The notes: generated by a model not told the origin, from the sequence alone. 64,000 nucleotides of DNA from an uncultured Veillonellaceae bacterium (GCA_964521625.1 CAZFSM010000003.1:143801-207800), one strand, 5' to 3'. Positions 27,770 to 61,853 are shown, numbered from the stretch's first letter. A program made the numbers and translations.

Positions 27770-28615
27770 ATGTCCACTGAAGACAATGCGGTGTTGGAAA
27801 AATTTCTGCATGTGATGCCTCTATTGGGTGCTATGTTCTCGGCCGACATCGGTGTTGCCGTCACTGATCGGGAAAAATATCTGCTATACAAACCCGGGCG
27901 GCAATTGGACCTGAAGATCAGCGCCGGCACCCCACTTAAGGCCGGCACGGCCATCGTTCGCGCCATGAATGAAAATCGCCGCGTATCCGTTCGGGGAGAC
28001 AAAGCTACGTTTGGTTTACCGTACATTGCCACCGCAGTGCCAATTCAGGATAGCAATGGATCGGTCGTCGGCGGCGCCGTCATCATTGAATCGGTCGACC
28101 AGCAGGACAAGCTGACAGAAATGGCGGTCAAACTGGCTGACAGCACCAACACCCTCGCCAGCACCTCGCAGGAAATTTCTGCCCAGACTGAAGAAATCAG
28201 TGCGGTAAGTCGCGCTATGTCATTAGCTGCCAGTCAATCGCAAAACCGCCTGCAAGAAACCGATCAGGTGGTCGGATTGATCAAAGCCATCGCCGGTCAG
28301 ACCAATATGCTTGGCTTAAACGCCGCGATCGAAGCGGCCCGCGTCGGCGAGCAGGGGCGGGGTTTTGGCGTTGTTGCCGAAGAAATCCGCAAATTGGCCG
28401 CCTCGACGGGAGATTCCATCAAGCAAATTGAAGCGACCCTGCGGACGATTCGTGATGACAGCCGGAAGAACTACGAGCAGGCTTGCCGAATCGATGAAGT
28501 CATGCCGCAAATCGCGCAAGCGATCACGCAAGTGGCCGGCACAGTGCAGGAAGTTAATGAGATGGCCCGCAATCTGAATCAAATGGCCGCCGATCTGACT
28601 AAAAACCAGGCTTAA
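27770..28615 (+). CDS. soluble chemoreceptor-like protein: PAS-like N-terminal sensor + methyl-accepting chemotaxis (MCP) signalling domain (paralog 1)
   Basis: Highly conserved MCP core [34 protein letters not shown]. No TM segments. AGGGAGGAG RBS. Confidence 0.8.
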
Positions 28616-30002
28616 AACCACGGCAGAGAAAAACCAGTATACTGCGTTGAATATATCGATCTGAATACGATAATGGCGGCAAAGGACTGACTTCGACAAA
28701 AAGTTGCTCCAATGCCGCTTTGTGTTGTTCATCGCCAAAAAACACCGCGTCCTCACCGGCCTGAAGCGGCGATTCGCCTCGCCAATAATCATACTGGGAA
28801 AACCGCGAAGGTGTGAGCACCTGGACCATCGGCCGCCCCGGCAAATAGTACCAGGCGAGCGACGCCAATTTGTAGTCGGCCGCCAACACGTGTTTCGCAG
28901 TCAAGAGCTCCGGTCCGGCCGATCGGAACATCACATCATAGCCTAGCACCTGTCGTTTCATCACAAGTTGCGGCGGCAGAAAGCTAAAAGCCTCCGGTAT
29001 CTTTAGCAGAAGGATCAAGACAGCGCCCACGACAATCCCCGCGCGGTAAATATTTCTATACCGGAGGCACTCAAGCCACCGGGCAATCAAAACGATGCCT
29101 GTGACGTAGGCGGGCGCCGCCCAGTTGCCTTCCGGTCGCTTAAACAAGGCCGAATAGGCGAAAAACACCAATACAGTCAGGCAGGGCCAGAGTAAAAAAA
29201 CCTGCTTTTCATCAGCCAGAATTTTTCTCCAGGAACGAAACAAAACATACAACAATACTAAGAAAAACAGCGGATTCAGGGCGACAGTCTGAACGCCCAG
29301 ATATTCGAAGAAACTGCCCGGATTCAAAGTCTGCGCTGCCGCAAAGCCATGATTCAATTGAAATTGAAAAGAAACCCATTCATGGCGGTAATTCCAGAGG
29401 AGAACCGGCGAAAACACCAGCAAAGCCGTTCCGATCGAAAACCACACTGCTCGGTTGCCCAGCTGCCGACGATAAGAGGAAAACAGCAAAAAACCCAGTA
29501 CACCCGGCAATAGCAACACCGCCGTATATTTCGACAGCAACGCAAATCCGGCAGTCACGCCCGCCAGATAGTAATAACCCCGCCGATCACCAAACAACGT
29601 CCTCTGCAGGAACCAGAGCGTCGCCGTCCAGCCCAGGATCAGCGGCGCATCCGGCGTAGCCAGGCTAAACCCGAGCTGGGCCAGTGGCGACAATAAAAAA
29701 ATCAGCAAGGCACGATCTGCCACAGTAGCATTGAACAAATCTTTGGCCATCTGCCAAATCCCGAATCCCGTCAAGGTCATGCAGCCTAGCGGAACCAAAC
29801 GGATCAGCCATTCGGCATCGCCAAACACAGTCACCAACTTGATCAACCAGGCAATCATCGGCGGATGATCAAAATAAGAAAGCTGCAGATGCTTTGACCA
29901 GACCCAGTAGTAGGCCTCGTCAAAATGCAGCGGCAGCGTCATGTTATAAATCAGGTTAAATAGCACGACAAAGGCAAAAAAAGCAGCCGTAGACCGCTTC
30001 AT
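28599..30002 (-). CDS. glycosyltransferase family 39 (ArnT/PMT-like, GT-C) membrane protein
   Basis: Polytopic, with N-terminal DEAYYW-type loop ([27 protein letters not shown]) typical of GT39/83. Start [13 protein letters not shown]-coupled to the upstream GT2. Confidence 0.75.
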
Positions 30003-30724
30003 GAGGAAATGCTGGAGTCCAGGCGAAGCTTCCACACCATCAGCACCGCTTCAAGAAATATCTTGCGCGACATCTTGGATTTTCCTGCCGTTCGGTCTTC
30101 AAAAACGATCGGTGTCTCGAAGACGTGAAACCCTTGGCAACTGGCCCGATAGGTCATTTCGATCTGAAACGAATAGCCGTTGGATTTAATCGAATCCAAA
30201 TCGATGGCTTCCAGCACTTCCCGCCGGAAACACTTAAACCCGCCGGTCAAATCACGCAGAGAAAGTCCCAGGATTGTCCGGGCATACAAACTGCCGCCGC
30301 GACTGATAAATTTGCGCAGCAAACCCCAGTTTTTCACGCCGCCGCCTGCCACGTAACGACTGCCCAGCACCAGATCATGCGTCTTGATCGCAGCCAAAAA
30401 GTCCGGCAGATATTTCGGGTCATGCGAAAAATCGGCATCCATTTCAAAAATATAATCATAATCGCGAGCCAGCGCCCATTTGAAACCGGCGATATAGGCA
30501 GTGCCCAATCCCAGCTTACCGGCCCGTTTCAGCAAAAACAGCTTTCCTGGATACGTAGACTCCATCAAGCTTTCGACGATCTCATAGGTTCGGTCCGGCG
30601 AATTGTCATCGACAACCAGCACATGCGCCGCCGGGTCGGTCTGCGTGATCAGCTCCAATAATTTTTCGATATTGTCCCGCTCATTATATGTCGGAATAAT
30701 GATCAGATGTCCGGCCACGGTCAC
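29999..30724 (-). CDS. polyprenol-phosphate sugar synthase (GT2, Dpm1/Ppm1/ArnC-like), catalytic domain only
   Basis: IIPTYNE, VVDDNSPD and DADFSHDP motifs of GT2 polyprenyl-phosphate glycosyltransferases; 241 aa. Confidence 0.8.
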   Translation of the reverse strand: MTVAGHLIIIPTYNERDNIEKLLELITQTDPAAHVLVVDDNSPDRTYEIVESLMESTYPGKLFLLKRAGKLGLGTAYIAGFKWALARDYDYIFEMDADFSHDPKYLPDFLAAIKTHDLVLGSRYVAGGGVKNWGLLRKFISRGGSLYARTILGLSLRDLTGGFKCFRREVLEAIDLDSIKSNGYSFQIEMTYRASCQGFHVFETPIVFEDRTAGKSKMSRKIFLEAVLMVWKLRLDSSISS

Positions 30725-31182: not shown

Positions 31183-31255
31183 TTATAACACAGCAAGCCG
31201 GTCGAAGCGAAAGCCGCAGGCAAATCAACTGAACCGCCAAACGGCGAACCTGCCG

Positions 31256-31695: not shown

Positions 31696-31717
31696 GATGA
31701 CTGTGCAGGAGGGTGCC

Positions 31718-33148
31718 ATGTACCGAATGGAAACCGACTTTCTCGGTGAGAAACCAGTCCCCGCCGTCGCCTATTACGGTATCCATACTGTCCGCGCGCT
31801 GGAAAATTTCGCGGTGTCCCGGCAACTTGTCCATCCCGAACTGATCCGCGCCATCGCCACCGTCAAGCAGGCGGCGGCGGAAATGAACCTGCATCTGGGT
31901 CTGCTCGACCCCCAGGTCGGTTCGGCGATATTTCAGGCAGCCGGCGAAATAGCCGAAGGCCGCTTTGCTGACCAGTTTCCGCTTGACGCGTTGCAGGGAG
32001 GCGCCGGAACCTCAACCAACATGAATGTAAATGAAGTCATCGCCAACCGCGCCTGCGAACTGCTCGGCAGCCAGAAGGGCGACTACGCCGTGGTGCATCC
32101 ATTGGACCAGGTCAATCTGTCGCAATCCACCAACGACGTCTATCCCACCGCGCTGCGGATAGCCGCCATCCGGTTGCTGCAGGGCCTGGCCGAAGCCTGC
32201 GCCCAGTTGCAGGGTGCGCTGCAAAAAAAAGAGGCCGAATTTGCCGGTGTGCTTAAACTAGGCCGCACTGAGATGCAAGATGCCGTGCCGGTCACGCTGG
32301 GCCAGGAGTTTTCCGCCTGGGCCGAAGCGATCGCCCGCGACCGCTGGCGCCTCTATAAAGTCGAAGAACGGCTGCGCGAAGTCAACCTCGGCGGCACGGC
32401 AGTCGGCACCGGTCTTAATGCAGAACGAAAATATGTATTTGGTGTCGTAGAACGGCTGCGCTCGCTGACCGGCATCGGCCTGGCCCGCGACGAAAACATG
32501 ATCGACACGACCCAGAACGCTGACGTTTTTGTCGAAGTATCCGGTCTGCTCAAGGCCTGCGCTACAACATTGATCAAGATCAGCAACGACCTGCGGCTGC
32601 TTTCCTCTGGTCCGCGCGGCGGTTTCGGCGAGATCCGCCTACCCGATTTGCAAGCCGGTTCCTCGATCATGCCAGGCAAGGTCAATCCAGTCATGCCGGA
32701 AATGGTGGCCCAGATCGCCTACCAGACCATCGCCCGCGATCTGGCGATCACTCTGGCCGCACAAGGCGGTCAGCTCGAACTGAACGCCTTCCTGCCGCTC
32801 ATCGCCGCCAATCTATTGCCGGCGATGGAAGAGCTGACCAATGCGATGCGATTGTTCGCCGAACGCTGCATTAACGGCATTGAAGCCAATAACGAACGTT
32901 GCCGGTTTCACCTGGAAAACAGCGTGGCACTGATCACGGCGCTGGCGCCGCTAATCGGTTACGACCGGGCGGCGAGCCTCGCCAAACAGGCTCTGCAGGC
33001 CGACTCACCCGTCAAACAGTCTCTGCTTGATTCTGGCCTGTTTACAACTGAAGAACTGGATAATTTGCTGCGACCGGAAGCCCTGACCCGCCCGGGGATG
33101 GTAAAACGACCGACCGCCGCCAAACCGAAGGAGGCCGCCCATGAATGA
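31718..33148 (+). CDS. aspartate ammonia-lyase family (class II fumarase/aspartase superfamily) protein
   Basis: GSSIMPGKVNP signature loop. QGGAGTSTNMN is aspartase-like rather than the fumarase C QTGSGTQ. Start MYRMETDFLGEK. Confidence 0.8.
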   Translation: MYRMETDFLGEKPVPAVAYYGIHTVRALENFAVSRQLVHPELIRAIATVKQAAAEMNLHLGLLDPQVGSAIFQAAGEIAEGRFADQFPLDALQGGAGTSTNMNVNEVIANRACELLGSQKGDYAVVHPLDQVNLSQSTNDVYPTALRIAAIRLLQGLAEACAQLQGALQKKEAEFAGVLKLGRTEMQDAVPVTLGQEFSAWAEAIARDRWRLYKVEERLREVNLGGTAVGTGLNAERKYVFGVVERLRSLTGIGLARDENMIDTTQNADVFVEVSGLLKACATTLIKISNDLRLLSSGPRGGFGEIRLPDLQAGSSIMPGKVNPVMPEMVAQIAYQTIARDLAITLAAQGGQLELNAFLPLIAANLLPAMEELTNAMRLFAERCINGIEANNERCRFHLENSVALITALAPLIGYDRAASLAKQALQADSPVKQSLLDSGLFTTEELDNLLRPEALTRPGMVKRPTAAKPKEAAHE

Positions 33149-34373
33149 AACACCTCGTGGCAACCGCCTGCATATCGCACTGTTCGGTCGCCGCAACGCC
33201 GGCAAGTCCAGCCTGATCAACGCTCTGACCAATCAGTCGCTGGCGATCGTCTCCGCCGTTGCCGGCACCACCACCGACCCTGTCTACAAATCGATGGAAA
33301 TCCTGCCGCTCGGCCCGGTGGTCGTGATCGACACCGCAGGGCTGGATGACGTCGGCGAACTGGGAATGCTGCGCATCGAAAAATCGCTGGAAGTACTGCG
33401 CAAAACCGATCTGGTTTTGCTTGTCGTCGACGCGACCGCCGGCATCGCCGGGCCGGAACGCGAACTGGCCGGCAAATGCCGGGCGCAAAATATCCCGTTC
33501 ATCCTGGTATTCAATAAATCTGATTTACAAACAGCGACGCCGGATGTGCTGGAAAGTTTCAAAACCGAGCTGGCGGCAGCCGCCGCCGTGACAGTCAGCG
33601 CCGAGCTGCGACAAGGCATCGGCGAACTGAAAATCGCCATGGTCCGTCATGCCCCGGCCCGCTGGGATAACCAGACCATCGTCGGCGATCTGCTGCAGCC
33701 CGGCGACATTGCCGTACTGTGCGTCCCGATCGACCTGGCCGCGCCGGCTGGCCGGCTGATTCTGCCGCAGGTCCAGATGATCCGCGACATTCTCGACCAC
33801 GACGCGCTGGCTTACACGGTAAAAGAACGCGAGTTGAAAGAATGCATCGCCAGTCTGAATCGCAAACCCAAGATCGTGATCACCGACTCCCAGGTCTTTC
33901 TCAAAGCCGACGCCGACACGCCGCCGGATGTACTGCTCACTTCGTTTTCGATCCTGTTCGCCCGCTACAAGGGCGACCTGGAAACGATGGTGCGCGGCGC
34001 CCGGGCGATCGACCACCTAAAGCCGGGCGACAAAGTGTTGATCAGCGAATCCTGCACGCATCACCGGGTGGAAGACGATATCGGCACGGTCAAAATCCCC
34101 CGCTGGCTCAGGCAACATGTCGGCGGCGATCTGGTCGTCGATCATTCCAGCGGTCTCAGTTTCCCGAAAAACCTCAGCGAATACAAACTGGTGCTGCATT
34201 GCGGCGCCTGCATGACCAACCGGCGCGAAATGCTGGCCCGCATCGTCGAGGTGCAGCAGGCTGGCGTTCCCATCGTCAACTACGGCGTGGCGATTGCCGC
34301 GCTGATGGGTATCCTGCGCCGCGCTTTGTCACCATTCCCGCTGTTGCAGGACATTCTCGACGAAGAAGAATAA
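33141..34373 (+). CDS. hydF: [FeFe]-hydrogenase H-cluster maturation GTPase HydF
   Basis: N-terminal GTPase G1 GRRNAGKSSLINAL. C-terminal CTHH...HCGAC, matching the CxHx(46-53)HCxxC FeS motif of HydF. 410 aa. Confidence 0.85.
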   Translation: MNETPRGNRLHIALFGRRNAGKSSLINALTNQSLAIVSAVAGTTTDPVYKSMEILPLGPVVVIDTAGLDDVGELGMLRIEKSLEVLRKTDLVLLVVDATAGIAGPERELAGKCRAQNIPFILVFNKSDLQTATPDVLESFKTELAAAAAVTVSAELRQGIGELKIAMVRHAPARWDNQTIVGDLLQPGDIAVLCVPIDLAAPAGRLILPQVQMIRDILDHDALAYTVKERELKECIASLNRKPKIVITDSQVFLKADADTPPDVLLTSFSILFARYKGDLETMVRGARAIDHLKPGDKVLISESCTHHRVEDDIGTVKIPRWLRQHVGGDLVVDHSSGLSFPKNLSEYKLVLHCGACMTNRREMLARIVEVQQAGVPIVNYGVAIAALMGILRRALSPFPLLQDILDEEE

Positions 34374-34388: not shown

Positions 34389-34434
34389 AGAACGACCTTG
34401 AAGCAATCGCCAGCAACAAGGTCGTCCTTTTTTC
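34389..34434. terminator. bidirectional hairpin between convergent hydF and the HD-GYP regulator
   Basis: AAAAAAGAACGACCTTG...CAAGGTCGTCCTTTTTT. Confidence 0.5.
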
Positions 34435-35498
34435 TATTCATACGCTGCAATGATTTTTTCCTCAACCAACAGGAAGGCATCTACAATTCGCGAATCAAAC
34501 TGAGTCCCGCTACCATCCAGGATGATCTTTATCGCGGCATCATGGTTGACGGCATCTTTGTAGCAACGTTTTGATCGCAATGCGTCATACACATCCGCCA
34601 CTGCCATGACACGGGCAGATAGCGGGATTTTTTCGCCGCTCAGTCCATCGGGATAGCCCGAACCGTCCCATTTTTCATGATGTGATCTGGCAATCTCTAT
34701 GCCCAGTGAAATAAAAGCGTTGTGTGGATAGCGGGATTGAACCATTGCCAAGGTTTTGGCCCCGATCAATGTATGCTGCTTCATGATTTCAAATTCCTCC
34801 GTTGAAAGCTTGCCGGGCTTGAGCAAAATTGCGTCGGCAATTCCTACCTTGCCCACATCATGCAACGGACTTGCCTGTTCCATGTATTTGACAAATTGCA
34901 TATCGACCGGATAGTTTTCGTCGTTCTGACCGTACAATGCCTCCGCGAGCAGCTTGCAACAAGACTGTACCCGGTCGAGATGCTGTCCGGTTGCATCGTC
35001 TCTGGACTCAGCCAATTTGGCCAGAGCAAAGATCGTACCCATCTGGGCTTCGGTGATTTCACGCACCTGCTCCTGCACCATGGCCTCCAGGTACTGTTGA
35101 TAACGATAGAGTTTTAAGTGAGTTTCGACACGCGCCTCGACTTCGATCAGTTCAAATGGTTTTGTCACGTAGTCAACGCCACCGGCTGCAAAGGCTTTCA
35201 CTTTGTCAGCCGCATCATCCATTGCGCTGAGAAAAATCACCGGAATAGACCGCCATTCCGGAGTTTTTTTTATGTGCGCACAAACTTCCAGCCCGCTCAT
35301 CCCTGGCATATTGATATCCAACAATATTAAATCCGGCTTACTGATCCGCATAATCTGCAACGCCAGGTCACCGCTCAGTGCAATTCTTACATTGTAGCCC
35401 TTGCCCCAAAACATGCGCGCCAAAACTTCCACATTTATCGGTACGTCATCTACGATCAATAAAGTTGGCAGCGTCTTGCTCGACGGTTCATTTAACAT
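34434..35498 (-). CDS. response regulator with HD-GYP c-di-GMP phosphodiesterase domain
   Basis: REC domain (LIVDD...DINMPGMSG) plus HD and HHEKWDGSGYP motifs. Confidence 0.85.
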   Translation of the reverse strand: MLNEPSSKTLPTLLIVDDVPINVEVLARMFWGKGYNVRIALSGDLALQIMRISKPDLILLDINMPGMSGLEVCAHIKKTPEWRSIPVIFLSAMDDAADKVKAFAAGGVDYVTKPFELIEVEARVETHLKLYRYQQYLEAMVQEQVREITEAQMGTIFALAKLAESRDDATGQHLDRVQSCCKLLAEALYGQNDENYPVDMQFVKYMEQASPLHDVGKVGIADAILLKPGKLSTEEFEIMKQHTLIGAKTLAMVQSRYPHNAFISLGIEIARSHHEKWDGSGYPDGLSGEKIPLSARVMAVADVYDALRSKRCYKDAVNHDAAIKIILDGSGTQFDSRIVDAFLLVEEKIIAAYE

Positions 35499-38400
35499 CT
35501 TGCGCCCCCCCCGCCAACAACTTTAGCAATGCAGGAAAATCGAAGCTCTTTGCGCATTTGCGCAATTCATTGACCATTTCGATATCACTGCCTTCCATTT
35601 CATCAAGCAACGCCAGTATCCGATAATATTCCCCGCCGGCAGCAGCCTTTCGCAGCATTTCCAGCAAAGCCGGATCTATCTTGTCCAGACGTATCGACCT
35701 ATCGCCAGCAAATATTGTTTCCGGATACGCCGGTCGTATTACCGGCCGCGGTGCAACGTATTCATATTGCAATCCCAATAGTTGCCGAATCTTTTCCAGC
35801 AGTTCGCGTTCCTGAAACGGCTTGCTGACAAATTCGGCCGCACCCGCAGCGATTACCTTCTCACGTTCATCACCAAACACACTGGCAGTAACAACAATAA
35901 CGGGAACTTGGCGATTGATCGCCTGCATCTGGCGCATTGCCTCATATCCGTCCATCCGAGGCATTTTCAGATCCATCAACACAATATCCGGTTGCCGTTC
36001 TCGGAACAAAGCCACACCGGTTTGTCCATCGAGTGCACTTCGGGTAAAAAAACCCAGAGTGCTAAGAATTCGTTCCAGCAATTCACAGTTCACCGCTTCA
36101 TCGTCCACAATCAACACTTTCCATTGCCGACCGTCTTTGACAATGCCGGATATACGCCGAGTTTCCTGTAGCGACTCCAATTCATCATCATTTGCCGTAC
36201 GCAGCCAAATATCGAAAGAAAAGACGCACCCTTTCCCCTCCTGACTGACAAGCGAAATATCGCCACCCATCATGCGAATGTACTCCCTGCAAATCGCCAG
36301 TCCGAGACCAGTACCGACCCCACTCTCCTGTCCACGCCTGGTCTGGGTGAAGGGTTGGAATAACTGCCGCTGCTCCGCTTCGGCAATACCCGGACCTGTA
36401 TCTTCAACACTGATCAACAAATGCAATTTCTTGTCGCTTTCGCTTTCAACTGCCACTTTTAATGCAATATGGCCAATTGCGGTAAATTTCACGGCATTGC
36501 TGAGCAGATTGATCAATACCTGTCGTAACCGGCCTGCGTCCGCCACAACCATTCTCGGCACTTCGCCAATGCACTCCACAGAAAATCCCAGCCCTTTTTC
36601 GGTCGTGCGCAAACGAAACATCTGGTCAATTTCGCGCAGCATTGTGTGCAAGTCAAAAACCAACGGTTGCAAAACAGTCCGCCCGGCCTCCATTTTAGAA
36701 ATTTCCAATATATTATTTATCAGGCCTAATAAGTGGCGACCGGCATTATTGATGTTTTCGAGATAGCCATATTGCTGTCCGTTCAGTTCCGCCTCGCGTT
36801 GCAACAATTGCGAAAAACCAAGAATCGCATTCATCGGAGTGCGGATTTCGTGCGAAACATTTGCAACAAATGCACCTTTTGCTTTATTTGCGGCTTCTGC
36901 AGCTTCCTTGGCCTGAACCAGTTCTTCGTTCATGGCTGTCATTTCTTCGTTCAGCGCCATAAGTTGACTGGTTCGCTCGTTAACCTTAACTTCCAGTCCG
37001 TCTTTGGCCTGAAGCAGCAATTCTCCCGCCTGTCTGATATCCGTTATGTCTCTGATAACGCCAACCAGGAAATCAACGCCATCGCCCCCGCGGTAAAGAG
37101 TTTTTTTCGTGACAATGGTATGGATTGTCCCGTCTGCACCGGTAATTTTTTCTTCATTAGTATTTTCCTGGCCGGTAACAAATACCAGTTCATCCTTTTC
37201 CCAAAACACATCTGCTTCCGCCTTGGGAAAAAAATCATAATCGCTTTTGCCGATCAAATCTTGTCGGCTTGTTCCGATCAATTCACACAATGCAGTGTTC
37301 AGCAATATCCAGTTATGCTGGCGGTCTTTGACAAAAATCGGATCGGCAATCGTATCAATGATCTTGTCGAGGAAGTTGCGCGACTCCTCCAGGGCAACTT
37401 TGGCCTTCCTGCGATCGGTAATGTCGCGGATCGATTCGATTGCACCAACAACCTGGCTGTCGCTATTGTAAAGCAGGCGGGTAACGCCCCACAGTTCCCG
37501 GACCGGTCCGCCCTGGACCGGCACCTCGGCCTCGGCCGTCAACAATTCACCATCAAGCTGAACATTATTATACTTTTGTGCAAGTTCCGCCTCAGTTTTG
37601 AACGCCAAGTCAATCAATATCGGCCGCCGCTCGCCATAAAACGGCAACGCATACTCATAATCGCCCTTGCCGAGCATATCTGCGGCCTTGACGCCGGTCA
37701 GTCTTTCCATAGCCCGGTTCCATGTCGTAATTTTTCCTGCACAGTCGACTGCAAAGGTTGCATCAGGAAAAAATTCGATGATTTCCTTCAAGCGCAGTTC
37801 CGACTGCACAAGCGCTTCTTCCGCTTGTTTACGTTCCGTTATGTCTTCCAGCGTCTCCACTGCACCTAATATATTACCACGGGCATCTTTTATTGCGGTG
37901 GCGGTAAAATACAGCCACCGACCAGACTGTCCCAGTGCCGGGAAAAAGTCGATCGCCTCATAAGCGTCCTCGATCAGTTTGGATTTGCGATATTTTCCGG
38001 CATACATCGCCTCAATCGCCGCATTATCTTTTTGAATGAGCAGGTCAGCCATACACGGACGCTCCGACTGATAAAAAGCATGCCAGTGTCGATTGCCGGC
38101 AAGCACGGACTCGGACTTAACGCCGCTGAGTTCCTCCAACGCCTTATTCCAGTGGGTAACGTTATGATTTTGATCAATCACAAATTGCGGTATTGGCGAT
38201 CCATCCAGCAAGGTCTGTAATTTATGCACCATTTCGGCCAATAGGTTTTCCGAATCGCGCAACGCGGCTTCGATATGTTTACGACTGGTAATATCCCGGA
38301 TGATAACAAGCGCATTTTGATTGGATCCGGCAACGATTCTCGCCTCGTAAAAATCACTTTCTTCGTTTGCCTGATACTGATATTCAATTATCCTAACTGT

Positions 38401-39477
38401 TTTGTCCGCTAATGCGCGCTTGAGCTGCGCCATCAGGCTTTGGGCAATATCCGCCGGAAAAATCGCATCGATATTTCGGCCACCATATCCCCAGTCCGCC
38501 TTACCTTCCTTTAAAGCCCCCTCACGCACCTCTTGCACAATACCATCGCTGCGAACCGAAAGAATCAGGTCGGGAATCGCCTCAAGAACTGCATGCAACT
38601 CGCCTGTTCTGCGTTGAACAGCCTTTTTCAGGCCAAAACTCCAGACAGCGAGGATAATCAGCAATACAACAACAGCGCCTAGCGCCAGCAACGCCCCTCT
38701 GCCAATTTCGCTTTTTTGCAATGCCTCGCCCAGCCAACGTTTGTCGATTGCAGCGTACTCATCGGCAGAAACCCCGGCAAACCCCGCTTCGATTATCTGC
38801 ATCAAAGCAACACTATCTTTTTTTACGGCACGGTGGAACTGTCCGGTATTGACTGGCGCTGTGACTCTAAATTCATCCTGCAGGCCCAGTTTGTTCAGAT
38901 AATATAGTGCCGGCGGCTTATCCATCAGAAAAACTACGATTTCTCGCCGTTTCGCCGCTTGGATCATCACTTCGTAACTATCGAAAAAAACCAGATCGTG
39001 TATATTGTGGCGAAACAGAAGATTCATCGCGTCATCGCCACTTTTCACGCCTACTTTAAACCCTTTCAAACTATTCATCGTTTCGATTCCGCTAATGTTC
39101 CGGTTAAAAAAAATAGCCACATCCAATGTGGCATAGGGTTGGGAAAAATCATAAATTCTCCGCCGTTCATCGTTGGCAAAAATGGTGTCAATAACGTCAA
39201 AATCGCCATTCTCCATGGCAGTAAGGGCTTTGCCCCAATCCATGGCGGTAAGCTCAATTTTTCGCCCGGTCTTTCGGCTCCACAATTCCCACTGATCTAT
39301 CAAGATTCCCTGCAACTTCCCGTTTTGATCACGGAATGAATATGGGGGATAGTTGTCATCCATGACGACTTTTATCATCACGTCTGGCGACGCAGCCGTT
39401 GCATCAGCGCCCACAACGAACAGGCACAACAATACCAACAACATAACGCCAACCCAGCCCTGCTTCGTCCGGTTCAT
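35488..39477 (-). CDS. hybrid sensor histidine kinase: two periplasmic SBP_bac_3 domains, TM, several PAS domains, HisKA, HATPase, two REC domains
   Basis: 1329 aa. H-box VSHEIRTPMNAILGF. G-box region. Two REC domains (LIVDDEAVN...; DIVLMDLKMPRMDG). Overlaps the downstream HD-GYP regulator by 11 nt. Confidence 0.85.
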   Translation of the reverse strand: MNRTKQGWVGVMLLVLLCLFVVGADATAASPDVMIKVVMDDNYPPYSFRDQNGKLQGILIDQWELWSRKTGRKIELTAMDWGKALTAMENGDFDVIDTIFANDERRRIYDFSQPYATLDVAIFFNRNISGIETMNSLKGFKVGVKSGDDAMNLLFRHNIHDLVFFDSYEVMIQAAKRREIVVFLMDKPPALYYLNKLGLQDEFRVTAPVNTGQFHRAVKKDSVALMQIIEAGFAGVSADEYAAIDKRWLGEALQKSEIGRGALLALGAVVVLLIILAVWSFGLKKAVQRRTGELHAVLEAIPDLILSVRSDGIVQEVREGALKEGKADWGYGGRNIDAIFPADIAQSLMAQLKRALADKTVRIIEYQYQANEESDFYEARIVAGSNQNALVIIRDITSRKHIEAALRDSENLLAEMVHKLQTLLDGSPIPQFVIDQNHNVTHWNKALEELSGVKSESVLAGNRHWHAFYQSERPCMADLLIQKDNAAIEAMYAGKYRKSKLIEDAYEAIDFFPALGQSGRWLYFTATAIKDARGNILGAVETLEDITERKQAEEALVQSELRLKEIIEFFPDATFAVDCAGKITTWNRAMERLTGVKAADMLGKGDYEYALPFYGERRPILIDLAFKTEAELAQKYNNVQLDGELLTAEAEVPVQGGPVRELWGVTRLLYNSDSQVVGAIESIRDITDRRKAKVALEESRNFLDKIIDTIADPIFVKDRQHNWILLNTALCELIGTSRQDLIGKSDYDFFPKAEADVFWEKDELVFVTGQENTNEEKITGADGTIHTIVTKKTLYRGGDGVDFLVGVIRDITDIRQAGELLLQAKDGLEVKVNERTSQLMALNEEMTAMNEELVQAKEAAEAANKAKGAFVANVSHEIRTPMNAILGFSQLLQREAELNGQQYGYLENINNAGRHLLGLINNILEISKMEAGRTVLQPLVFDLHTMLREIDQMFRLRTTEKGLGFSVECIGEVPRMVVADAGRLRQVLINLLSNAVKFTAIGHIALKVAVESESDKKLHLLISVEDTGPGIAEAEQRQLFQPFTQTRRGQESGVGTGLGLAICREYIRMMGGDISLVSQEGKGCVFSFDIWLRTANDDELESLQETRRISGIVKDGRQWKVLIVDDEAVNCELLERILSTLGFFTRSALDGQTGVALFRERQPDIVLMDLKMPRMDGYEAMRQMQAINRQVPVIVVTASVFGDEREKVIAAGAAEFVSKPFQERELLEKIRQLLGLQYEYVAPRPVIRPAYPETIFAGDRSIRLDKIDPALLEMLRKAAAGGEYYRILALLDEMEGSDIEMVNELRKCAKSFDFPALLKLLAGGAQDVK

Positions 39478-46043: not shown

Positions 46044-46055
46044 ATATTGCACGAA

Positions 46056-50992: not shown

Positions 50993-51925
50993 TTATTTGC
51001 CGGGAAAGGCCAGGAAATACATCAGCAGGATATTGATGATCAGCATGGGTACCGCCGTCATCACCTGCGCCCGGATTACCCCGTTCTTATCCTGCATTTC
51101 CAGCAGCGCCGCCGGCACCACGTTGAAATTGGCAGCCATCGGCGTCAGCAATGTCCCGCAGTAACCGGACAGCATGGCAATCACACCGGCAATTGCCGGA
51201 TCCGCGCCATGCATTTTGATGACCAGCGGAATGCCAATGCCGGTAGTAATGACCGCAAACGCGGCAAAGGCATTGCCCATGATCATCGTAAACAGTGCCA
51301 TGCCCACACAATAGGCCACTACGGTAGCGAAGCGGATATCAACCGGCACGACGGTGGACACCATATCAGCCACCACTTGCCCGACTCCCGCTTTGGCAAA
51401 CAGAAAACCGAGCGCCGCCAGAAACTGTGACAGAATGATTGCCCAGCCCACGGCGTCCAAAAGCCGCCGCCCTTCTTGAAATGCCTGCACCGGCATTATC
51501 CGGGTCAAAGCAAACGCCATAACCAGAGCGACGACCGAACCAATGCCCAGGCCTACCAAGGCCCCCATCTTCGGCGCCAGCCAGGCGACGAGGAACGTAA
51601 CCACGGGAACGGCCAGCGCCGGACCAAACAGCCACCAACCGATCCGGTCGGCCATCTGGCGACGGAAATCTGCCGCAGCACTCCAATATTCGCCCATCCC
51701 CATCCATTTCGCGCCGGCGATCGCCGCCATCACGACGACAAGCCCGCCGACCACCGCTGGGGGAATCTCTTTACCCCAAATAAACGTTATGCCGTAAAGA
51801 CCCCAGAACGTTGCGGTTCCCGCTTTGGTCAGACCTGATTGTTTTTTGTCCAGCACCGTCAATACAGTGAATGCCAACAGAAAAATGCCGGTAATGGCAT
51901 ATATTTGATCCAATGTAACCATCAT
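50993..51925 (-). CDS. DUF979-family membrane protein (Pcp-associated)
   Basis: Polytopic membrane protein, 310 aa. Conserved neighbourhood with pcp as I recall it. Confidence 0.55.
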   Translation of the reverse strand: MMVTLDQIYAITGIFLLAFTVLTVLDKKQSGLTKAGTATFWGLYGITFIWGKEIPPAVVGGLVVVMAAIAGAKWMGMGEYWSAAADFRRQMADRIGWWLFGPALAVPVVTFLVAWLAPKMGALVGLGIGSVVALVMAFALTRIMPVQAFQEGRRLLDAVGWAIILSQFLAALGFLFAKAGVGQVVADMVSTVVPVDIRFATVVAYCVGMALFTMIMGNAFAAFAVITTGIGIPLVIKMHGADPAIAGVIAMLSGYCGTLLTPMAANFNVVPAALLEMQDKNGVIRAQVMTAVPMLIINILLMYFLAFPGK

Positions 51926-52602
51926 TTCTGTTCACCTGCCTCATTTGAGCCTGCAGCGCGAATCGCACGGTCCATGAGCAGATAACGGACTCCGGCGACA
52001 ATAGCGGCTGCCACAGCTGTGGGAATCGCATATTCAGCCATTTTCATCAGGTCCACTTTATAGCCGGCATTCTCCAAAACACCTTTGATCAGCAGCAAGC
52101 CGCCGGCCGCCGGAAACAACAGCTGACCGAAGAAGTTACCGTAGTTTTCCGATGAAGCCGACATGCCGCGAATCCGCTCCAGCCAGGCTGCGCTTTTCGC
52201 GCCTTCCCGCGCTGCCGCCGCTTCAGTCATCGGCGCAATAATCGGACGGATAAAGCTGGGATGCCCGCCCAGCTGCAGTCCCAGTCCCACCGTGACCTGA
52301 CGGAAGATCTGATAAGCAATCATCACGCGTCCGGCAGTCAAGGTCTTCATGCTGCGAATTAAATCCTCAGCTTTTTCCCGCAAGCCGAACCGTTCCAAGA
52401 TGCCGATGACCGGCAACACCAGAATCAGCAGCGACATGTAGCGGTTGGTGACAAAGGCCTGGCCAATCGCCTCCAAAATCTGCACCGGTGACAGTCCTGC
52501 CACCAAGCCCGTGGCAAATCCCGCTGCCAGAACGACCAACAATGGATTGAACCTGAATAACAAACCGATGATAACGATGGCAACCCCAATGAGTTTAATC
52601 AA
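51922..52602 (-). CDS. DUF969-family membrane protein (Pcp-associated)
   Basis: 226-aa membrane protein overlapping the DUF979 gene start. Confidence 0.55.
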   Translation of the reverse strand: MIKLIGVAIVIIGLLFRFNPLLVVLAAGFATGLVAGLSPVQILEAIGQAFVTNRYMSLLILVLPVIGILERFGLREKAEDLIRSMKTLTAGRVMIAYQIFRQVTVGLGLQLGGHPSFIRPIIAPMTEAAAAREGAKSAAWLERIRGMSASSENYGNFFGQLLFPAAGGLLLIKGVLENAGYKVDLMKMAEYAIPTAVAAAIVAGVRYLLMDRAIRAAGSNEAGEQK

Positions 52603-52643: not shown

Positions 52644-53336
52644 TTATTGCACCCGGTCGGTATAGCCAGCCAGCGCTTCCAGGTCATTGATGACAATCTT
52701 CTTGTTTTTCATACTGATCAAGTGTTCCGCCATGAATTTCTTCAATACGCGGGTTACGGTAATGCGCGAGCAGCCAACATTGTGCGCTAGCTCCCCCTGG
52801 GTGAACAAAGTCGAAATCATCCGGGGATCCTGGCCGGGTTCCAGCGTATCCGAGCAGGCCGACAAGCGAATCAAGGCATCGGCGATCCGGCCGGTAGCGT
52901 CATTAAAGGTGTTGTTGGTCAACTGCAACAGAATAATCCGGTACTTGCGGGTTATGCTGTTAATAATGCAAGGATACACCTGGGGATTTTTTTCAATCGC
53001 TGTTTGCAGCAATTCCCTGTTGATATAGGATACTTCGGCGTCTTCCTTGGCCCGGACCAAAAAATTTAGCCCGCCGCCGCAGAACAGATTCATTTCGCCA
53101 AATATTTCCCCTGGTCGCATCGTGTACAGCAATCTTTCCGAGCCCTGAAAACTGAGGATACTTTTGGCGACCTTGCCTCTGACAACGATGGCAAAGCTGG
53201 AACGGGCCAGTTCACAGTCAATCGTCTGTTTTTTCTTATACTGTCGGATCACGCCGCGCTCAGACAACTCATTCAGAAAGTAGTGCCGCATCGCAATCTG
53301 CTTTTTTTCATCAAAGACATCTTCGTACACGAGCAT
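52644..53336 (-). CDS. Crp/Fnr family transcriptional regulator
   Basis: cNMP-binding fold (GEIFGEM) plus C-terminal HTH (GCSRITVTRVLKKF). Confidence 0.8.
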   Translation of the reverse strand: MLVYEDVFDEKKQIAMRHYFLNELSERGVIRQYKKKQTIDCELARSSFAIVVRGKVAKSILSFQGSERLLYTMRPGEIFGEMNLFCGGGLNFLVRAKEDAEVSYINRELLQTAIEKNPQVYPCIINSITRKYRIILLQLTNNTFNDATGRIADALIRLSACSDTLEPGQDPRMISTLFTQGELAHNVGCSRITVTRVLKKFMAEHLISMKNKKIVINDLEALAGYTDRVQ

Positions 53337-53566: not shown

Positions 53567-55108
53567 TCAGCCTTGCGCCTGCAGATCGCCGACGATGGCT
53601 TCCACCTGGTTCACGATTGTTTCACCGACCAACAATCGGTACACTGTCGCAATATCCTCGGCCGGAACCCGGTCTTCGTCCAGATGCGGCACTTCCGCCC
53701 GGACAGCCTGATGCGCGGCCCGCACGCCAACGCCCGGGTCCAGTGGTTTCAAGAAGTCGAGTCCCTGCGCTGCGACCAACATCTCAATCGCAATAACATG
53801 GCGGACGTTTTCGAGAATCTCGCGCGACTGCCTAGCCGCAATCGTGCCCATGCTGACATGGTCCTCCTGATTGGCCGAAGTAGGAATCGAGTCGACGCAG
53901 GCGGGGTGAGCCAGCACTTTGTTCTCTGAAACGAGAGCCGCCGCCGTGTATTGGGTGATCATCAGGCCGGAATCGACGCCGGGATAAGCCGTAAGAAACG
54001 GCGGCAAATCGCTGAGATGCGCATCCAGCATCCGGTTCACCCGCCGCTCGGAAATGCTGCCGATCTCCGCCAGCGCCGTCTTCAGATAATCCATCACGAG
54101 AGCCACCGGTTGTCCATGGAAATTGCCTCCAGAGATCACTTCGCCCGTGTCGGGGAAAATCAACGGATTATCGGTAGCCGAATTCATCTCGATCACAATC
54201 GTTTCCTGGGCCCGGCGCACTGCGTCTTTGGACGCGCCATGCACCTGCGGCACGCAGCGCAGTGAATAGGCATCCTGCACCTTGCCGCAATGCTCGTGCG
54301 ATTCCATGATCCGACTATCAGATGTTAATCTCAGCAGATTGCCGCTGGTCGCCAGCTGGCCCGGATGCGGCCGTATTCGGCTAATCCGCTCGTCATAGGC
54401 GGCGCGGGTTCCCCGCAACGCTTCCAGCGACATCGCAGCCGCGATGTCAGCCGCTTTCATCAGCAGCGCGGCATCGTGGACAACCAAAGCGCCAACTGCC
54501 GTCATGATCTGGGTGCCGTTAATCAGCGCCAACCCTTCTTTAGCGGCAAACGCCACCGGCGACAAGCCAACCGCCGCCAGTGCTGCGGCTCCTGTCACCA
54601 ATTTTCCGGCGACGAACGCCTTGCCTTCGCCCATCAGCACCAGGGCGATGTGTGATAACGGTGACAAATCACCGCTGGCGCCCACTGATCCCTTGCTGGG
54701 TACTGCCGGATACACACCCCGGTTGAGCAGTTCCAGCAACATATCGACCGTAGCCGGCCGGATGCCCGAATAGCCTTTAACCAGTGAATTGGCCCGCATC
54801 AGCATGGCAGTCCGTACCACATCCTCAGGCAGGCACTCGCCGACTCCCGCAGCATGACTCAAAATCAAGTTTCGCTGCAAAGCTTCGCGCTCTTCCGGCG
54901 AAATCCAGATTTGGCTGAGATTGCCGAAACCGGTGGAAATGCCGTAAACCGGTGTGGTGGAATCCAGTAACTTTTCGACGATGGCGCGACTGGCTGCCAA
55001 CTGTTGCCGCCCGGCCGCACTGATTTCAACTGTTTCCCGTTGTCTTGCCACCCGAACGACTTCAGAGAGAGTCAGCGAGTTTCCGTCAATACTTATCATT
55101 TCGCCCAT
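53567..55108 (-). CDS. hutH: histidine ammonia-lyase
   Basis: ASG (GSVGASGDL) MIO-forming motif; 513 aa; HAL family. Confidence 0.9.
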   Translation of the reverse strand: MGEMISIDGNSLTLSEVVRVARQRETVEISAAGRQQLAASRAIVEKLLDSTTPVYGISTGFGNLSQIWISPEEREALQRNLILSHAAGVGECLPEDVVRTAMLMRANSLVKGYSGIRPATVDMLLELLNRGVYPAVPSKGSVGASGDLSPLSHIALVLMGEGKAFVAGKLVTGAAALAAVGLSPVAFAAKEGLALINGTQIMTAVGALVVHDAALLMKAADIAAAMSLEALRGTRAAYDERISRIRPHPGQLATSGNLLRLTSDSRIMESHEHCGKVQDAYSLRCVPQVHGASKDAVRRAQETIVIEMNSATDNPLIFPDTGEVISGGNFHGQPVALVMDYLKTALAEIGSISERRVNRMLDAHLSDLPPFLTAYPGVDSGLMITQYTAAALVSENKVLAHPACVDSIPTSANQEDHVSMGTIAARQSREILENVRHVIAIEMLVAAQGLDFLKPLDPGVGVRAAHQAVRAEVPHLDEDRVPAEDIATVYRLLVGETIVNQVEAIVGDLQAQG

Positions 55109-58557: not shown

Positions 58558-58802
58558 CCCGCGTCACGCCCCTTCATCCCGGTTTGGTGATGCCTGATAT
58601 TTTTTCTGTAATTATTTATATTTCAGCTTTTCAAACCATAATCCCTTTGTTTAAAAGTGTTTCATTCGTTTTGTTTTTGGTTGTAAACTTTTCCCTGTTA
58701 AAGCAAAAAAATCTGTGATAGTATAATTAAGTTGATTAAGTTTTCTGCATATTTTTATCGAACAATATAAAAAGACACAATAAAATAGCAGGAGGGGATC
58801 CA

Positions 58803-59660
58803 ATGGCTGAGTATCCAGACAAAAACCGGTCGGCATCAGAACTACTGGAAATGGCGGCTGAACTGTCACCCTATTTCAACGACATGATCGCAGGCGACAT
58901 CGGCGTCTCTGTGATCAGAGACGGCAAATACATCGCCTATGTACCGGCCAGTTCACTCGACTTCAAAAATAAAATCGGCGACCCTGTCAAGGGTAAGGTC
59001 AGTCTGGATTGTCTACAAACCGGACAAAATATAACCCAGGTCATAACCCGTGAAAAATCTGCTTATGGCGCTGCCTATGTCGCCTGCGCCATGCCATTCA
59101 AGGACGGAAATTCAGTCGTGGGCTGCGTCACCACAACCCAAACGGTGGAAAAGCAGGACAAAATCATCTCTATCGGCGGTGAATTGGCTGCCTCCTCGCA
59201 GGAACTCAATGCCGGCATGGAAGAGCTGGCTGCCAGCGCCCAGGAAGTGGCGGGAACCACTGGCGAACTGACCCGACTCAGTCAGGAGGTCGCCCAGGCG
59301 GCCCGGCAGATGGATGAAGTGGTTTCCTTTATCAAGAACATTGCCGGCCAGACCAATCTGCTAGGGCTTAATGCCGCCATTGAAGCGGCCCGGGTCGGCG
59401 AACAGGGCCGCGGATTTGGCGTAGTCGCGGAAGAAGTGCGAAAATTGGCCACCTCCAGTGCTGAATCAGTTAAAACCATCACGAAGTCATTGCAACAGGT
59501 TCTGGCTTCGATCGATTCCCTTTCCAGCAAACTTTCCGTCATCGACCGCAATGTGGCCGAACAATCGACGGCTGTCAGCGAAATGACGAAATTCAGCCAG
59601 AATCTCGCTGTGCTGGCCAATGAACTGTCGCAGGTTTCCTCCACACTGTTTGATGATTAA
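58803..59660 (+). CDS. soluble chemoreceptor-like protein, PAS-like sensor + MCP signalling domain (paralog 2)
   Basis: [34 protein letters not shown] core; AGGAGGGG RBS. Confidence 0.8.
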
Positions 59661-59814
59661 CTTCGCGAAAACGCCTTAAGCTCTCTTTATCTACATGGTT
59701 TATTATAAACCCGCTGCCCCTTTGGCGCAGCGGGTTTATCTCTTGTCATCCAAACTAAAATGCGGTAGAATGTCAACGTGCGTCGAGCAAATGTTCATTG
59801 GTAAAGGAGTAATC

Positions 59815-60984
59815 ATGATGCGTCCATTTTCTAAACTGACAGCGGGGCTGGTTGGACAGCCGATGCTGGAAATCCTGACCACCGTCACCGCGATGGAAGC
59901 CACCGGACAAAAAGTCTACCGCTTTGAAGTCGGCGATTCCGATTTCGATGCGTATTCACACATCATCGATGCAACTAAAACGGCCCTGGATGCAGGGCAT
60001 ACCCGTTACGTCAATTCCATGGGAATCGAACCCTTGCGCCAGTCGATCCGGACGTATATCGAACAGGGCTGGGGCTTCAAACCCGACCTTGACCAGATCG
60101 TCGTTGCGCCGTCGAATAGCCTGATCGATTTTGTCGTACGCTGCGTCGCCGATCCCGGCGACGAAGTCATCTTCACAGATCCCGGATTCCCTTCGTACTT
60201 TGCCGTCACCAACTATCTGGGGATTCGCGATGTGCGGGTACCGGTTTATGAATCCAATGGGTTCCGGCTCAATCCGGACGACCTGGAAGCACGAATCACC
60301 GACAAGACCCGCCTGATCATCGTCAATACACCGCAAAACCCGACTGGCGCCGTGATGACCGCCGACGAAGCGGCGCGGATCGCTGCGATTGCCAAGAAAC
60401 ATCAACTCTGGGTCCTCAGTGACGAAATGTACTCGGAGAACTTGTACGACGGAGCAACTCACCATTCGCCGTCCGTCTTTGATCAATGCCGCGAACAAAC
60501 GATCATTTTGCATGGTTTCTCCAAAGGCTTCTCCATGTCCGGTTGGCGTCTGGGGTACGCCGTGGGACCGGCAGCACTCATGGCCAAACTGGGGCTGATG
60601 TTCCAAACGATTTACACTTGCGTTCCACCGTTCATTCAATATGCAGGAGTCAGTGCGCTTGCCAGCGACCGCAGTTTGCTGCGGGAACGAATCGAAAAAT
60701 ACCGGCAGCTGCGCGATGTGATGGTCGGGGCGTTGAACGAGATCCCCGGCGTTTCCTGCCCCACACCCAAAGGCGCTATCTATCTGTTTCCCAACATCAA
60801 GGGAACGGGCCTCTCCAGCCAGGCTTTTGCCAAAACCGTACTGGAAAAGGCCGGGGTCGCCACTGTGCCGGGAACCTGCTTTGGCCCCGGCGGAGAGGGC
60901 TATGTCCGGCTGTGTTATCTGCGTGAAGAATCGCTGATCCGTGAAGCCTGCGCCAAAATGAAGCAGGCGCTGACGCTCAAATAG
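59815..60984 (+). CDS. pyridoxal-phosphate-dependent aminotransferase, class I/II
   Basis: HGFSKGFSMSGWRLGY PLP-lysine region. Start MMRPFS with AAAGGAG RBS. Confidence 0.8.
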   Translation: MMRPFSKLTAGLVGQPMLEILTTVTAMEATGQKVYRFEVGDSDFDAYSHIIDATKTALDAGHTRYVNSMGIEPLRQSIRTYIEQGWGFKPDLDQIVVAPSNSLIDFVVRCVADPGDEVIFTDPGFPSYFAVTNYLGIRDVRVPVYESNGFRLNPDDLEARITDKTRLIIVNTPQNPTGAVMTADEAARIAAIAKKHQLWVLSDEMYSENLYDGATHHSPSVFDQCREQTIILHGFSKGFSMSGWRLGYAVGPAALMAKLGLMFQTIYTCVPPFIQYAGVSALASDRSLLRERIEKYRQLRDVMVGALNEIPGVSCPTPKGAIYLFPNIKGTGLSSQAFAKTVLEKAGVATVPGTCFGPGGEGYVRLCYLREESLIREACAKMKQALTLK

Positions 60985-60995
60985 GAGTCAGGCTT

Positions 60996-61853
60996 TCAAG
61001 CGGGCTCTTCTGTATTCTGCAACATCCGCGACGCTGCCGAAGACAGGTCTCCCGCCATTGTCGCAAGCGTTCTGCTTGCGACCGCCATCTCGTTTACCGA
61101 GGAACTTTGGCCGTTTGCCGTCGCGCCCACCTCACTGATCTTTAGGGTTAATAGCGTGATGGCCTCTTTGATTTGATGCAAAGAAGAAGTCACGCTCTTT
61201 ACCGAGCTCGCACTGGCAACGGCCAGTTTTCTCACCTCATTTGCCACCACTGCGAACCCGCGCCCCTGTTCGCCGACCCGGGCGGCTTCGATAGCGGCAT
61301 TCAGTCCCAGGAGGTTAGTCTGCTCGGCCATCTTCTTAATCAGCGCAGCAATCTCATCCGTCTGCGTAACGATCAACTCCAGTTCCTGGCTTAATATGCA
61401 GATATCCCGGCTTGACGAAGTCAATGCCTGGGAGCTGTTTGACAACTCATCCATCCCGGCAGTGAACTGCTGTGATGACGCCGCCAATTCTCCCGCGATA
61501 TTATGCACGATTTCTTGGTCACCGGTCAGCTGATTGACCAGTACACAACCCACGACCGTCCCTTTTTCCTTCAACGGGAGCCCACATACATAGTATGCCC
61601 TTCCGCCGATAGCTTTCGAACTGTCCACGTTTCGGACGATGCGCATTCCTGTTGCCTGACAGGCCAGCACCACGGGTCCTCTTGCTTCTTCTCCAATTTT
61701 TATCCCCAGGTCAATTTGGCGACCGGGTTCATACGCCGCGTAACAGCCCGCTTTTATCACGGTTATACTGACGTCGTTGGGCATCATCGCATTAAGATAA
61801 GGTGCCACCTCAACCACCATGTCCAGAATTTCGCGGGCCGAATGTTTGCTCAT
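60996..61853 (-). CDS. soluble chemoreceptor-like protein, PAS-like sensor + MCP signalling domain (paralog 3)
   Basis: [34 protein letters not shown] core. Start [10 protein letters not shown] (the track N-terminal extension runs into a hairpin). Confidence 0.75.

Follow-up and report, generated by a model that had tools for sequence, protein, structure and literature searches.

Three diverged genes for predicted YfmS-type soluble chemoreceptors in a Veillonellaceae genome segment

Introduction

A 64,000-nucleotide segment of the genome of an uncultured Veillonellaceae bacterium (GCA_964521625.1, CAZFSM010000003.1:143801-207800), referred to here as the window, contains three genes, designated W1, W2 and W3, that an earlier note made from the sequence alone had described as paralogs encoding soluble, PAS-like signalling proteins of the methyl-accepting chemotaxis protein (MCP) type. 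The locus raises the question of what these proteins are: intact receptors or fragments of longer ones, representatives of a known family or of a new architecture, and recent or ancient duplicates of one another. We propose, from sequence comparison and structural modelling, that all three are members of the YfmS family of small soluble chemoreceptors (the Bacillus subtilis YfmS type), because of their matches to MCPsignal, the match of a model to the YfmS entry 9a72, and BLASTP alignments that are colinear over the full length. The architecture is already known in this family and is not new, and the finding is correct but ordinary.

Results

Three intact genes encoding soluble proteins

All three open reading frames (ORFs) are present where the earlier note had placed them, and they encode proteins close to the length of about 285 amino acids (aa) that it gave (281, 285 and 285 aa; Table 1). 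W1 and W2 each start at the first start codon past an in-frame stop, so that W1 has no upstream extension, and a Shine-Dalgarno site lies upstream of each of the three genes, that of W1 being GGGAGGAG. The W3 frame is open up to an alternative GTG at 61952, which would give a protein of 318 aa; this codon has no ribosome-binding site, whereas the ATG at 61853 has GAAGAGG upstream and agrees with the N-termini of homologs. The overall and third-position GC contents (GC and GC3) of the three genes are like those of the rest of the window, and a tblastn search of the window identified exactly three MCP-like genes, W1, W2 and W3, and no fourth.

No transmembrane (TM) segment is predicted from the hydropathy of W1, W2 or W3, and none of the three has a signal peptide. 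The Kyte-Doolittle maxima (19-residue mean) are 1.61, 0.87 and 1.12 for W1, W2 and W3, respectively, and lie within the folded domain; the W1 peak coincides with the N-terminal helix and the strand after it in the modelled soluble domain. These values agree with the soluble nature previously claimed for the proteins.

A short signalling hairpin of the MCP type

The C-terminal part of each protein matches Pfam MCPsignal (PF00015) at 93.6 (W1), 99.9 (W2) and 86.0 bits (W3), against a gathering cut-off of 34.6, and no other family—HAMP included—is found above threshold in any of them. The near-identical core noted earlier is present in all three as a 34-residue stretch (QTN[ML], 19 further residues, [GA]VVA[EN]E[IV]RKLA), which alignments show to be almost identical to the corresponding region of Thermotoga maritima and Escherichia coli receptors. 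A full-length AlphaFold2 (AF2) model of W2, built from a 60-sequence alignment, has a pLDDT of 93.5, and in it the last strand of the sensor passes directly into a helix spanning residues 116-280. The W2 hairpin superposes on the Tsr cytoplasmic domain (1qu7) with an rmsd of 1.4 Å over 167 columns, and since the helical part superposes on both Tsr and T. maritima Tm14, it has the form of a canonical MCP hairpin.

Arm geometry was determined by aligning 107 members of the family. In 104 of them, 85 residues separate the end of the sensor from the tip glutamate. The C-terminal arm varies from 81 to 93 residues around a median of 85; its length is 87 in W1, 85 in W2 and 90 in W3. The count of about 12 + 12 heptads puts the hairpin at about the length of 24H, the shortest MCP class known, to which the proteins are assigned by length and not by a class hidden Markov model (HMM). 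The description of the MCP domain as minimal therefore holds, with the sensor fused directly to a short hairpin and no HAMP domain in between.

The earlier note had also regarded the methylation helices as truncated. They are short, at 12 heptads per arm, but probably not simply cut off, as methylation motifs recur in register on both arms. Using the strict consensus [ASTG][ASTG]xx[EQ][EQ]xx[ASTG][ASTG], matches among the 107 members fall at −67, −60, −53, +52, +59 and +66 from the tip, with single exceptions at −46 and −207; these positions are heptad-spaced and face each other across the two arms. W2 has two strict matches (Q133-E134 and Q147-E148) and W3 has one (Q128-Q129). On this pattern of motifs, the methylation helices, though short, are probably present.

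A Cache/PAS-like sensor domain

The N-terminal segment of about 110 aa has no Pfam or NCBIfam family above threshold in W1, W2 or W3; the Pfam comparison suggested in the earlier note thus returned MCPsignal for the C-terminal part and nothing for the N-terminal one. The short sequence patterns by which that segment had been called PAS-like are exact in W1 only and approximate in W2 and W3, but the homology is real, with a single profile HMM of the domain recognizing all three (E-values 1.5e-31 to 1.9e-58). The N-domains are strongly diverged between the paralogs, with the fold and the linker length fixed, and conservation across the whole family is mostly of Gly, Pro and Tyr residues (D32, Y46, G59, G89, Y92, P98 and G107).

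W2 residues 1-118 were modelled with AF2 from an alignment of 41 homologs (pLDDT 92.6, pTM 0.85). The modelled elements are helix 11-28, strands 34-39 and 42-47, a long loop, helix 65-73, and strands 77-81, 92-101 and 104-114, giving an α-ββ-α-βββ order that is the PAS/Cache arrangement with a preceding N-terminal helix. In a Foldseek search of the PDB the top match is chain A of 9a72, which is YfmS (E-value 4e-9, TMq 0.78), followed by GAF domains, the PAS/Cache domains that WalK/YycG carries outside the cytoplasm, the CitA PDC domain, which binds citrate, and dCache domains from KinD, PctC, Tlp3 and DctB. These further matches have E-values of 5e-5 to 4e-3 and TM scores of 0.43-0.64 (0.5-0.64 for GAF domains and for the Cache domains of CitA, WalK, KinD, PctC and Tlp3), and Foldseek gives a probability of 1.0 to CitA, WalK, KinD, Tlp3, PctC, GAF and PAS structures. 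Searching PDB sequences with the N-domain profile gave nothing meaningful (best E-value 0.72) in a sequence set that apparently does not contain 9a72.

Each of the 41 N-domains was also scanned individually against Pfam, and sub-threshold matches were found to sCache_3_2 (12 of the 41), GAF-type families (about 10), dCache_1 (3) and PAS_4 (2). The sCache_3_2 matches are co-linear, with residues ~50-104 aligned to profile positions 71-122 of 140; they include W1, which also has sub-threshold matches to Cache_3-Cache_2 and sCache_3_3, and neither W2 nor W3 is among them. The best of these scores 22.0 bits (E-value 1.9e-4), below the cut-off of 28.4. A PAS-like N-terminal domain, as described earlier, is thus supported at the level of the superfold, the modelled fold being of the PAS/Cache type, but the nearest relatives by fold and weak sequence signal appear to be Cache/PDC domains (CitA-type sCache_3_2) and GAF domains and not canonical PAS domains. 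By its sequence the domain falls outside formal Cache membership, because the score is below threshold and the domain is predicted to be cytoplasmic: a position outside the cytoplasm and between TM helices is expected of this superfamily, and the present domain starts a soluble protein.

Membership and extent of the YfmS family

The full-length W2 model was compared with chain A of 9a72, yielding TM scores of 0.91/0.91, an rmsd of 2.5 Å over 287 columns, and 27% identity. The title of this entry is 'Integrative model of YFMS-CHEW by crosslinking MS and deep learning'; in the collection of papers searched, none was found on YfmS with the 24H class or on YfmS-CheW cross-linking. In BLASTP searches a Bacillus swezeyi protein matches W1 at 34% identity (E-value 2e-51) and W2 at 31% (E-value 1e-46), colinear from about residue 1-14 to the C-terminus, and the 90% cluster of this protein includes B. 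licheniformis 'Chemotaxis sensory transducer YfmS' and B. sonorensis 'Methyl-accepting chemotaxis protein YfmS'. The N-domain HMM also recognizes two Bacillus loci, L074 (E-value 3.3e-20) and L066. Papers on B. subtilis describe YfmS as one of ten chemoreceptors, the only soluble one besides HemAT, and an orphan without an assigned signal.

When the W1 N-domain alone was used in a word-indexed homolog search, only eight truncated fragments came back, and an exhaustive search with the N-domain profile HMM was used instead. Among 1.84 billion cluster representatives (50% identity clusters) it identified 701 clusters at E ≤ 1e-3, nearly all with a length of 270-290 aa, and 223 at E ≤ 1e-10. Among the best 150 matches, almost all of the complete proteins have 265-310 aa, and the only other architecture is that of two fusions of ~590 aa. 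In these two, P0172 (589 aa) and P0178 (597 aa), a pair of complete YfmS-like units, both consisting of sensor and hairpin, is joined head to tail.

Genomic loci were collected by scanning one genome per species with the full-length alignment and were re-checked with the N-domain HMM. The scan gave 595 relatives, and the best 80 all hold an ORF of 272-300 aa recognized by the HMM (calls from the first start reach 361 aa). These 80 loci are from Negativicutes (Sporomusa, Pelosinus, Anaerospora, Lucifera and Dendrosporobacter), Clostridia (Desulfosporosinus, Pelotomaculum, Caloramator, Clostridium and Thermoanaerobacterium) and Bacillus, with a few from metagenome-assembled genomes (MAGs) labelled Synergistaceae or Leptospirales. 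In these searches the sensor domain is found almost exclusively in the ~280-aa architecture, in members of the Negativicutes, Clostridia and Bacilli.

Age of the duplications

The three genes are paralogous, as had been claimed. Their full-length colinear identities are 35% (W1/W2), 45% (W2/W3) and 34% (W1/W3), and the pairwise alignments have E-values of 5e-46 to 8e-84, far beyond chance. W1-like proteins (up to 63% identity) and W2-like proteins (up to 85%) occur as separate types in other Negativicutes genomes; the nearest relatives of W2 are Negativicutes sequences, with the 85% match in a 'Veillonellaceae' MAG. W3 is related to the W2 type but divergent; its best match is about 53% identical, and it is the sole member of its 90% cluster. 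A recent tandem duplication, for which the earlier note had suggested a check of identity and phylogeny, is ruled out by the 34-45% identities together with the closer relatives of each type in other genomes. At such identities W1, W2 and W3 are old paralogs, and on this sequence evidence we regard the duplications as ancient. More paralogs had been looked for as well: the window has none, and several genomes of relatives supply 2-3 family loci, and in about 10 of the 80 loci another paralog lies no more than 10 kb away. For this group, therefore, three copies in 34 kb are unremarkable.

Cysteines in the sensor domains of W2 and W3

The only cysteines of W2 are C70, in the helix, and C95 and C108, in the last two strands, and W3 has cysteines at the equivalent positions (Table 1). 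Among 114 close homologs of W2, C108 is conserved in 110, C70 in about 101 and C95 in about 70. There is no cysteine in the W1 N-domain, and W1 and most of the wider family do not have those of W2 and W3. Judging from strand pairing in the model, the W2 cysteines should share one face of the sheet under the helix, where the pockets of Cache and PAS domains lie, and this clade-specific pair or triad may form a redox or metal site.

A broader scenario can be outlined, which we put forward as speculative and on balance unlikely. In it the YfmS-type sensor would be a cytoplasmic offshoot of the extracytoplasmic CitA/DcuS-like single-Cache lineage, expanded in Negativicutes into intracellular metabolite or redox sensors for metabolism-dependent taxis; the Cys70/Cys108(/Cys95) clade of W2 and W3 would operate as a switch based on thiol redox chemistry or on a metal, and the W1 clade, which has no Cys, would have another metabolite as its ligand. 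If true, this would open a first route to the function of an orphan receptor family to which B. subtilis YfmS belongs.

Genomic context

W1 adjoins an NMT1-type ABC transporter and a PMT_2/GT2/GtrA glycosylation set, W2 sits between a molybdopterin oxidoreductase and an aminotransferase, and W3 comes after an amidohydrolase gene. The neighbours are thus as the earlier note described them, but the functional argument built on this placement finds no support. The arrangement recurs only in a metagenome contig of the same organism and partly in the 85%-identical relative; conserved synteny with the ABC transporter, glycosyltransferase, molybdopterin oxidoreductase, aminotransferase and amidohydrolase genes does not extend past very close relatives. 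In the 80 loci, the 140 genes directly beside family members represent 194 Pfam families, the commonest of which, CoA_trans, occurs 5 times. Enrichment of che genes next to family members was likewise considered and rejected, with no Che family among the top 25. Because the neighbours are not conserved, they give no support to a link between the receptors and the adjacent metabolism, and the context does not settle which pathway the receptors feed. Upstream of W1, W2 and W3 there are only weak sigma-70-like matches.

A perfect 20-bp inverted repeat lies at 61885-61926, between the stop of the amidohydrolase gene (61943) and the W3 start (61853). The corresponding RNA hairpin has a folding energy of −38.2 kcal/mol (z −9.0 versus shuffles), lacks a U-tract, and occurs nowhere else in the window; its possible roles are those of a Rho-independent-like stop or an RNA-stabilizing element for the amidohydrolase transcript, or of an operator before W3.

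The window is dense in genes for the catabolism of nitrogen compounds: formiminotransferase, cyclodeaminase, a HutH-type aromatic amino-acid lyase and two amidohydrolases, and further an aspartase/fumarase-type lyase, a glutamate dehydrogenase and an ammonium transporter. Just past the end of the window, upstream of W3, there is an AllF/AllG/carbamate-kinase-type cluster (locus L083, 1-9911). The other features in Table 1 include an ankyrin-repeat protein, such repeats being uncommon in free-living bacteria, and a HydF gene, which is consistent with an anaerobic lifestyle.

Table 1. Predicted features of W1, W2 and W3, and other genes of the window
Feature	Position (nt)	Strand	Basis or remark
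W1, YfmS-type soluble MCP, 281 aa	27770..28615	+	ORF; MCPsignal E 1.7e-26
W1 N-terminal Cache/PAS-like sensor domain, aa 1-109	27770..28096	+	N-domain HMM E 1.5e-31
W1 signalling hairpin, aa 110-281, tip Glu194	28097..28612	+	Arms 85 and 87 residues
W1 tip core, aa 177-210	28298-28399	+	
W2, YfmS-type soluble MCP, 285 aa	58803..59660	+	ORF; MCPsignal E 1.9e-28
W2 N-terminal Cache/PAS-like sensor domain, aa 1-115	58803..59147	+	AF2 model pLDDT 92.6; Foldseek
W2 cysteines, aa 70, 95, 108	59010-59012, 59085-59087, 59124-59126	+	Conservation among homologs
W2 signalling hairpin, aa 116-285, tip Glu200	59148..59657	+	Superposes on Tsr 1qu7, Tm14 3g67
W2 methylation-consensus motifs, two	59187-59216, 59229-59258	+	Strict consensus
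W2 tip core, aa 183-216	59349-59450	+	
W3, divergent YfmS-type soluble MCP, 285 aa	60996..61853	-	ORF; MCPsignal E 3.4e-24
W3 N-terminal sensor domain, aa 1-110	61524..61853	-	N-domain HMM E 1.1e-40
W3 cysteines, aa 65, 90, 103 (equivalent to W2 Cys70, Cys95, Cys108)		-	
W3 signalling hairpin, aa 111-285, tip Glu195	60999..61523	-	
W3 methylation-consensus motif, one	61455-61484	-	Strict consensus
W3 tip core, aa 178-211	61221-61322	-	
Nitrogen-compound catabolism genes	4842-6364, 10722-11981, 16835-18280, 31697-33148, 48862-50121, 53567-55108, 61943-63166 (amidohydrolase before W3)		
SBP_bac_3-PAS-GGDEF-EAL protein, 1060 aa	6484-9666	-	
HydF [FeFe]-hydrogenase maturation GTPase	33141-34373	+	Adjoins aspartase-like lyase
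SBP_bac_3-PAS hybrid histidine kinase (1329 aa), then response regulator with HD-GYP-type HD_5	34434-39477	-	Response regulator 34434-35498
PAS-sigma54 activator	46175-47674	-	
Ankyrin-repeat protein, 241 aa	47950-48675	+	Ank_2 E 2.6e-24
DUF979/DUF969 membrane-protein pair	50993-52602	-	Beside Crp/Fnr-type regulator 52644-53336

Discussion

The best explanation as a whole, which we consider probable, is that W1, W2 and W3 are anciently diverged cytoplasmic chemoreceptors of the YfmS family in which the state of the sensor controls CheA output and, through it, flagellar behaviour. By what is general for the family and for MCPs, each protein would dimerize into a four-helix bundle, and the near-canonical tip would dock to CheW and CheA in a chemosensory array, as suggested by analogy with B. 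subtilis YfmS, the one protein for which CheW docking is supported, through the 9a72 title. The occupancy or chemical state of the cytoplasmic sensor would shift the packing of the short bundle and thereby the output of the kinase. The Gln/Glu pairs, heptad-spaced at ~53-67 residues from the tip, are candidate adaptation sites of the CheD/CheB/CheR type. The three receptors most probably sense different intracellular cues, W2 and W3 sharing cysteines that W1 does not have.

Several observations weigh against this explanation. The entry 9a72 is itself an AI-assisted model, so that the TM score of 0.91 compares a model with a model. W1 has only relaxed matches to the methylation consensus and no strict one, and each methylation site is strictly matched in just 13-17 of the 107 members. 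No cheA, cheW, cheY, cheR, cheB or flagellar gene is present in the 64-kb window, and none of these is enriched beside family members in the 80 loci. A promoter of the sigma-28/SigD type (TAAA-N13-17-CGATA) is absent upstream of W1, W2 and W3, the motif occurring at chance level. A ligand or phenotype is known for no member of the family, and yfmS deletions and chimeras in B. subtilis papers have given no informative phenotype.

Some of these same observations favour other explanations. The three genes are orphans: che and fla genes adjoin family members neither in the window nor in the 80 related loci, and no sigma-28-like promoter precedes W1, W2 or W3. They could serve a chemosensory pathway unconnected with motility, or an output of another kind (c-di-GMP turnover or gene expression, for example), instead of flagellar chemotaxis; the pathway of the 24H receptors of Vibrio cholerae is described as unresolved, and the window does contain c-di-GMP and two-component genes (the GGDEF-EAL protein and the HD-GYP response regulator in Table 1). 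We nevertheless find this improbable. Those signalling genes neither adjoin the three MCP genes nor stay conserved with them, the tip that contacts CheA and CheW is canonical, and the B. subtilis homolog is counted as a flagellar chemoreceptor and modelled on CheW cross-links. MCP genes are usually scattered across genomes, and B. subtilis has a single chemotaxis pathway.

The N-domain could alternatively be a dimerization cap or a protein-interaction module, with the proteins acting as constitutive components or modulators of arrays. That no ligand is known for any member accords with this, the conserved Gly, Pro and Tyr residues could be purely structural, and T. maritima Tm14 shows that sensor-less soluble receptors exist. 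The fold, however, is that of the ligand-binding Cache, PAS and GAF sensors, several paralogs per genome are common, and divergence of the N-domain on a fixed fold and linker is the pattern expected for diversifying ligand specificity, making such a cap decidedly improbable. The probability that the ORFs are pieces of longer receptor genes since disrupted, or chance ORFs, is practically nil. The alternative GTG of W3 is the sole loose point, and nothing else was found to support such a reading; it is refuted by starts that directly follow an in-frame stop (W1 and W2), by ribosome-binding sites on all three genes, and by a family length that is constant over hundreds of clusters. GC and GC3 agree with the window, and the models are of high confidence from about residue 10 to the end. 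The earlier note had seen no sign of frameshifts, and with the same N-terminal arm length in 104 of the 107 members this is borne out.

The three genes add little by themselves, and annotation pipelines already label the family 'methyl-accepting chemotaxis protein'. The family presents a small open problem: a sensor that has no Pfam model, a fixed architecture of ~280 aa, and an invariant 85-residue link to the kinase-control tip, in a group whose B. subtilis member is one of the few chemoreceptors of that organism with no known signal. With a cytoplasmic Cache-like sensor joined to the shortest hairpin, such receptors would offer a compact setting in which to study how signals are transmitted when neither a membrane nor a HAMP domain is involved, and the multi-paralog genomes of Negativicutes offer natural specificity variants for ligand screening.

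Comparison with known systems

In having ~12 heptads per arm, W1, W2 and W3 resemble the 24H class in the classification of Alexander and Zhulin. Reviews recognize 24H as a class whose pathway is often difficult to assign, and its V. cholerae examples are the soluble PAS-PAS receptors VC1406 and VCA0864 and the membrane McpA-like VCA1088; the soluble ones have tandem PAS domains, whereas W1-W3 have a single Cache-like domain. T. maritima Tm14 (3g67 and 3g6b) has a soluble short hairpin like that of W2 (rmsd 1.6-1.7 Å over 169 columns), but in its solved chains (213 residues) the hairpin alone aligns, and no counterpart of the α/β sensor is matched.

The sensor shares an N-terminal helix and a five-stranded sheet with the CitA/DcuS-type PDC domains (sCache_3_2; 2j80, 1p0z and 8bgb; TMq 0.57-0.64). 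Those domains are periplasmic, TM-flanked and located on histidine kinases, whereas that of W1-W3 is predicted to be cytoplasmic and is shorter (~105 versus ~140 positions). HemAT and Aer2, which are soluble receptors for aerotaxis that sense through haem, likewise have a cytoplasmic sensor N-terminal to an MCP hairpin, but theirs are a globin or a PAS-haem domain with HAMP, and their signalling domains are much longer; their sensors are unrelated to that of W1-W3 in sequence and fold, Pfam and Foldseek giving no globin or Aer2 PAS match for the latter.

The closest counterpart is B. subtilis YfmS (286 aa), which has the same length and two-part architecture as W1, W2 and W3 and, like them, no TM segment and no HAMP domain. 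The B. subtilis papers name a single YfmS, whereas the genome represented by the window has at least three diverged paralogs, two of which (W2 and W3) carry clade-specific sensor cysteines; and the host is a member of the Negativicutes, probably a diderm anaerobe.

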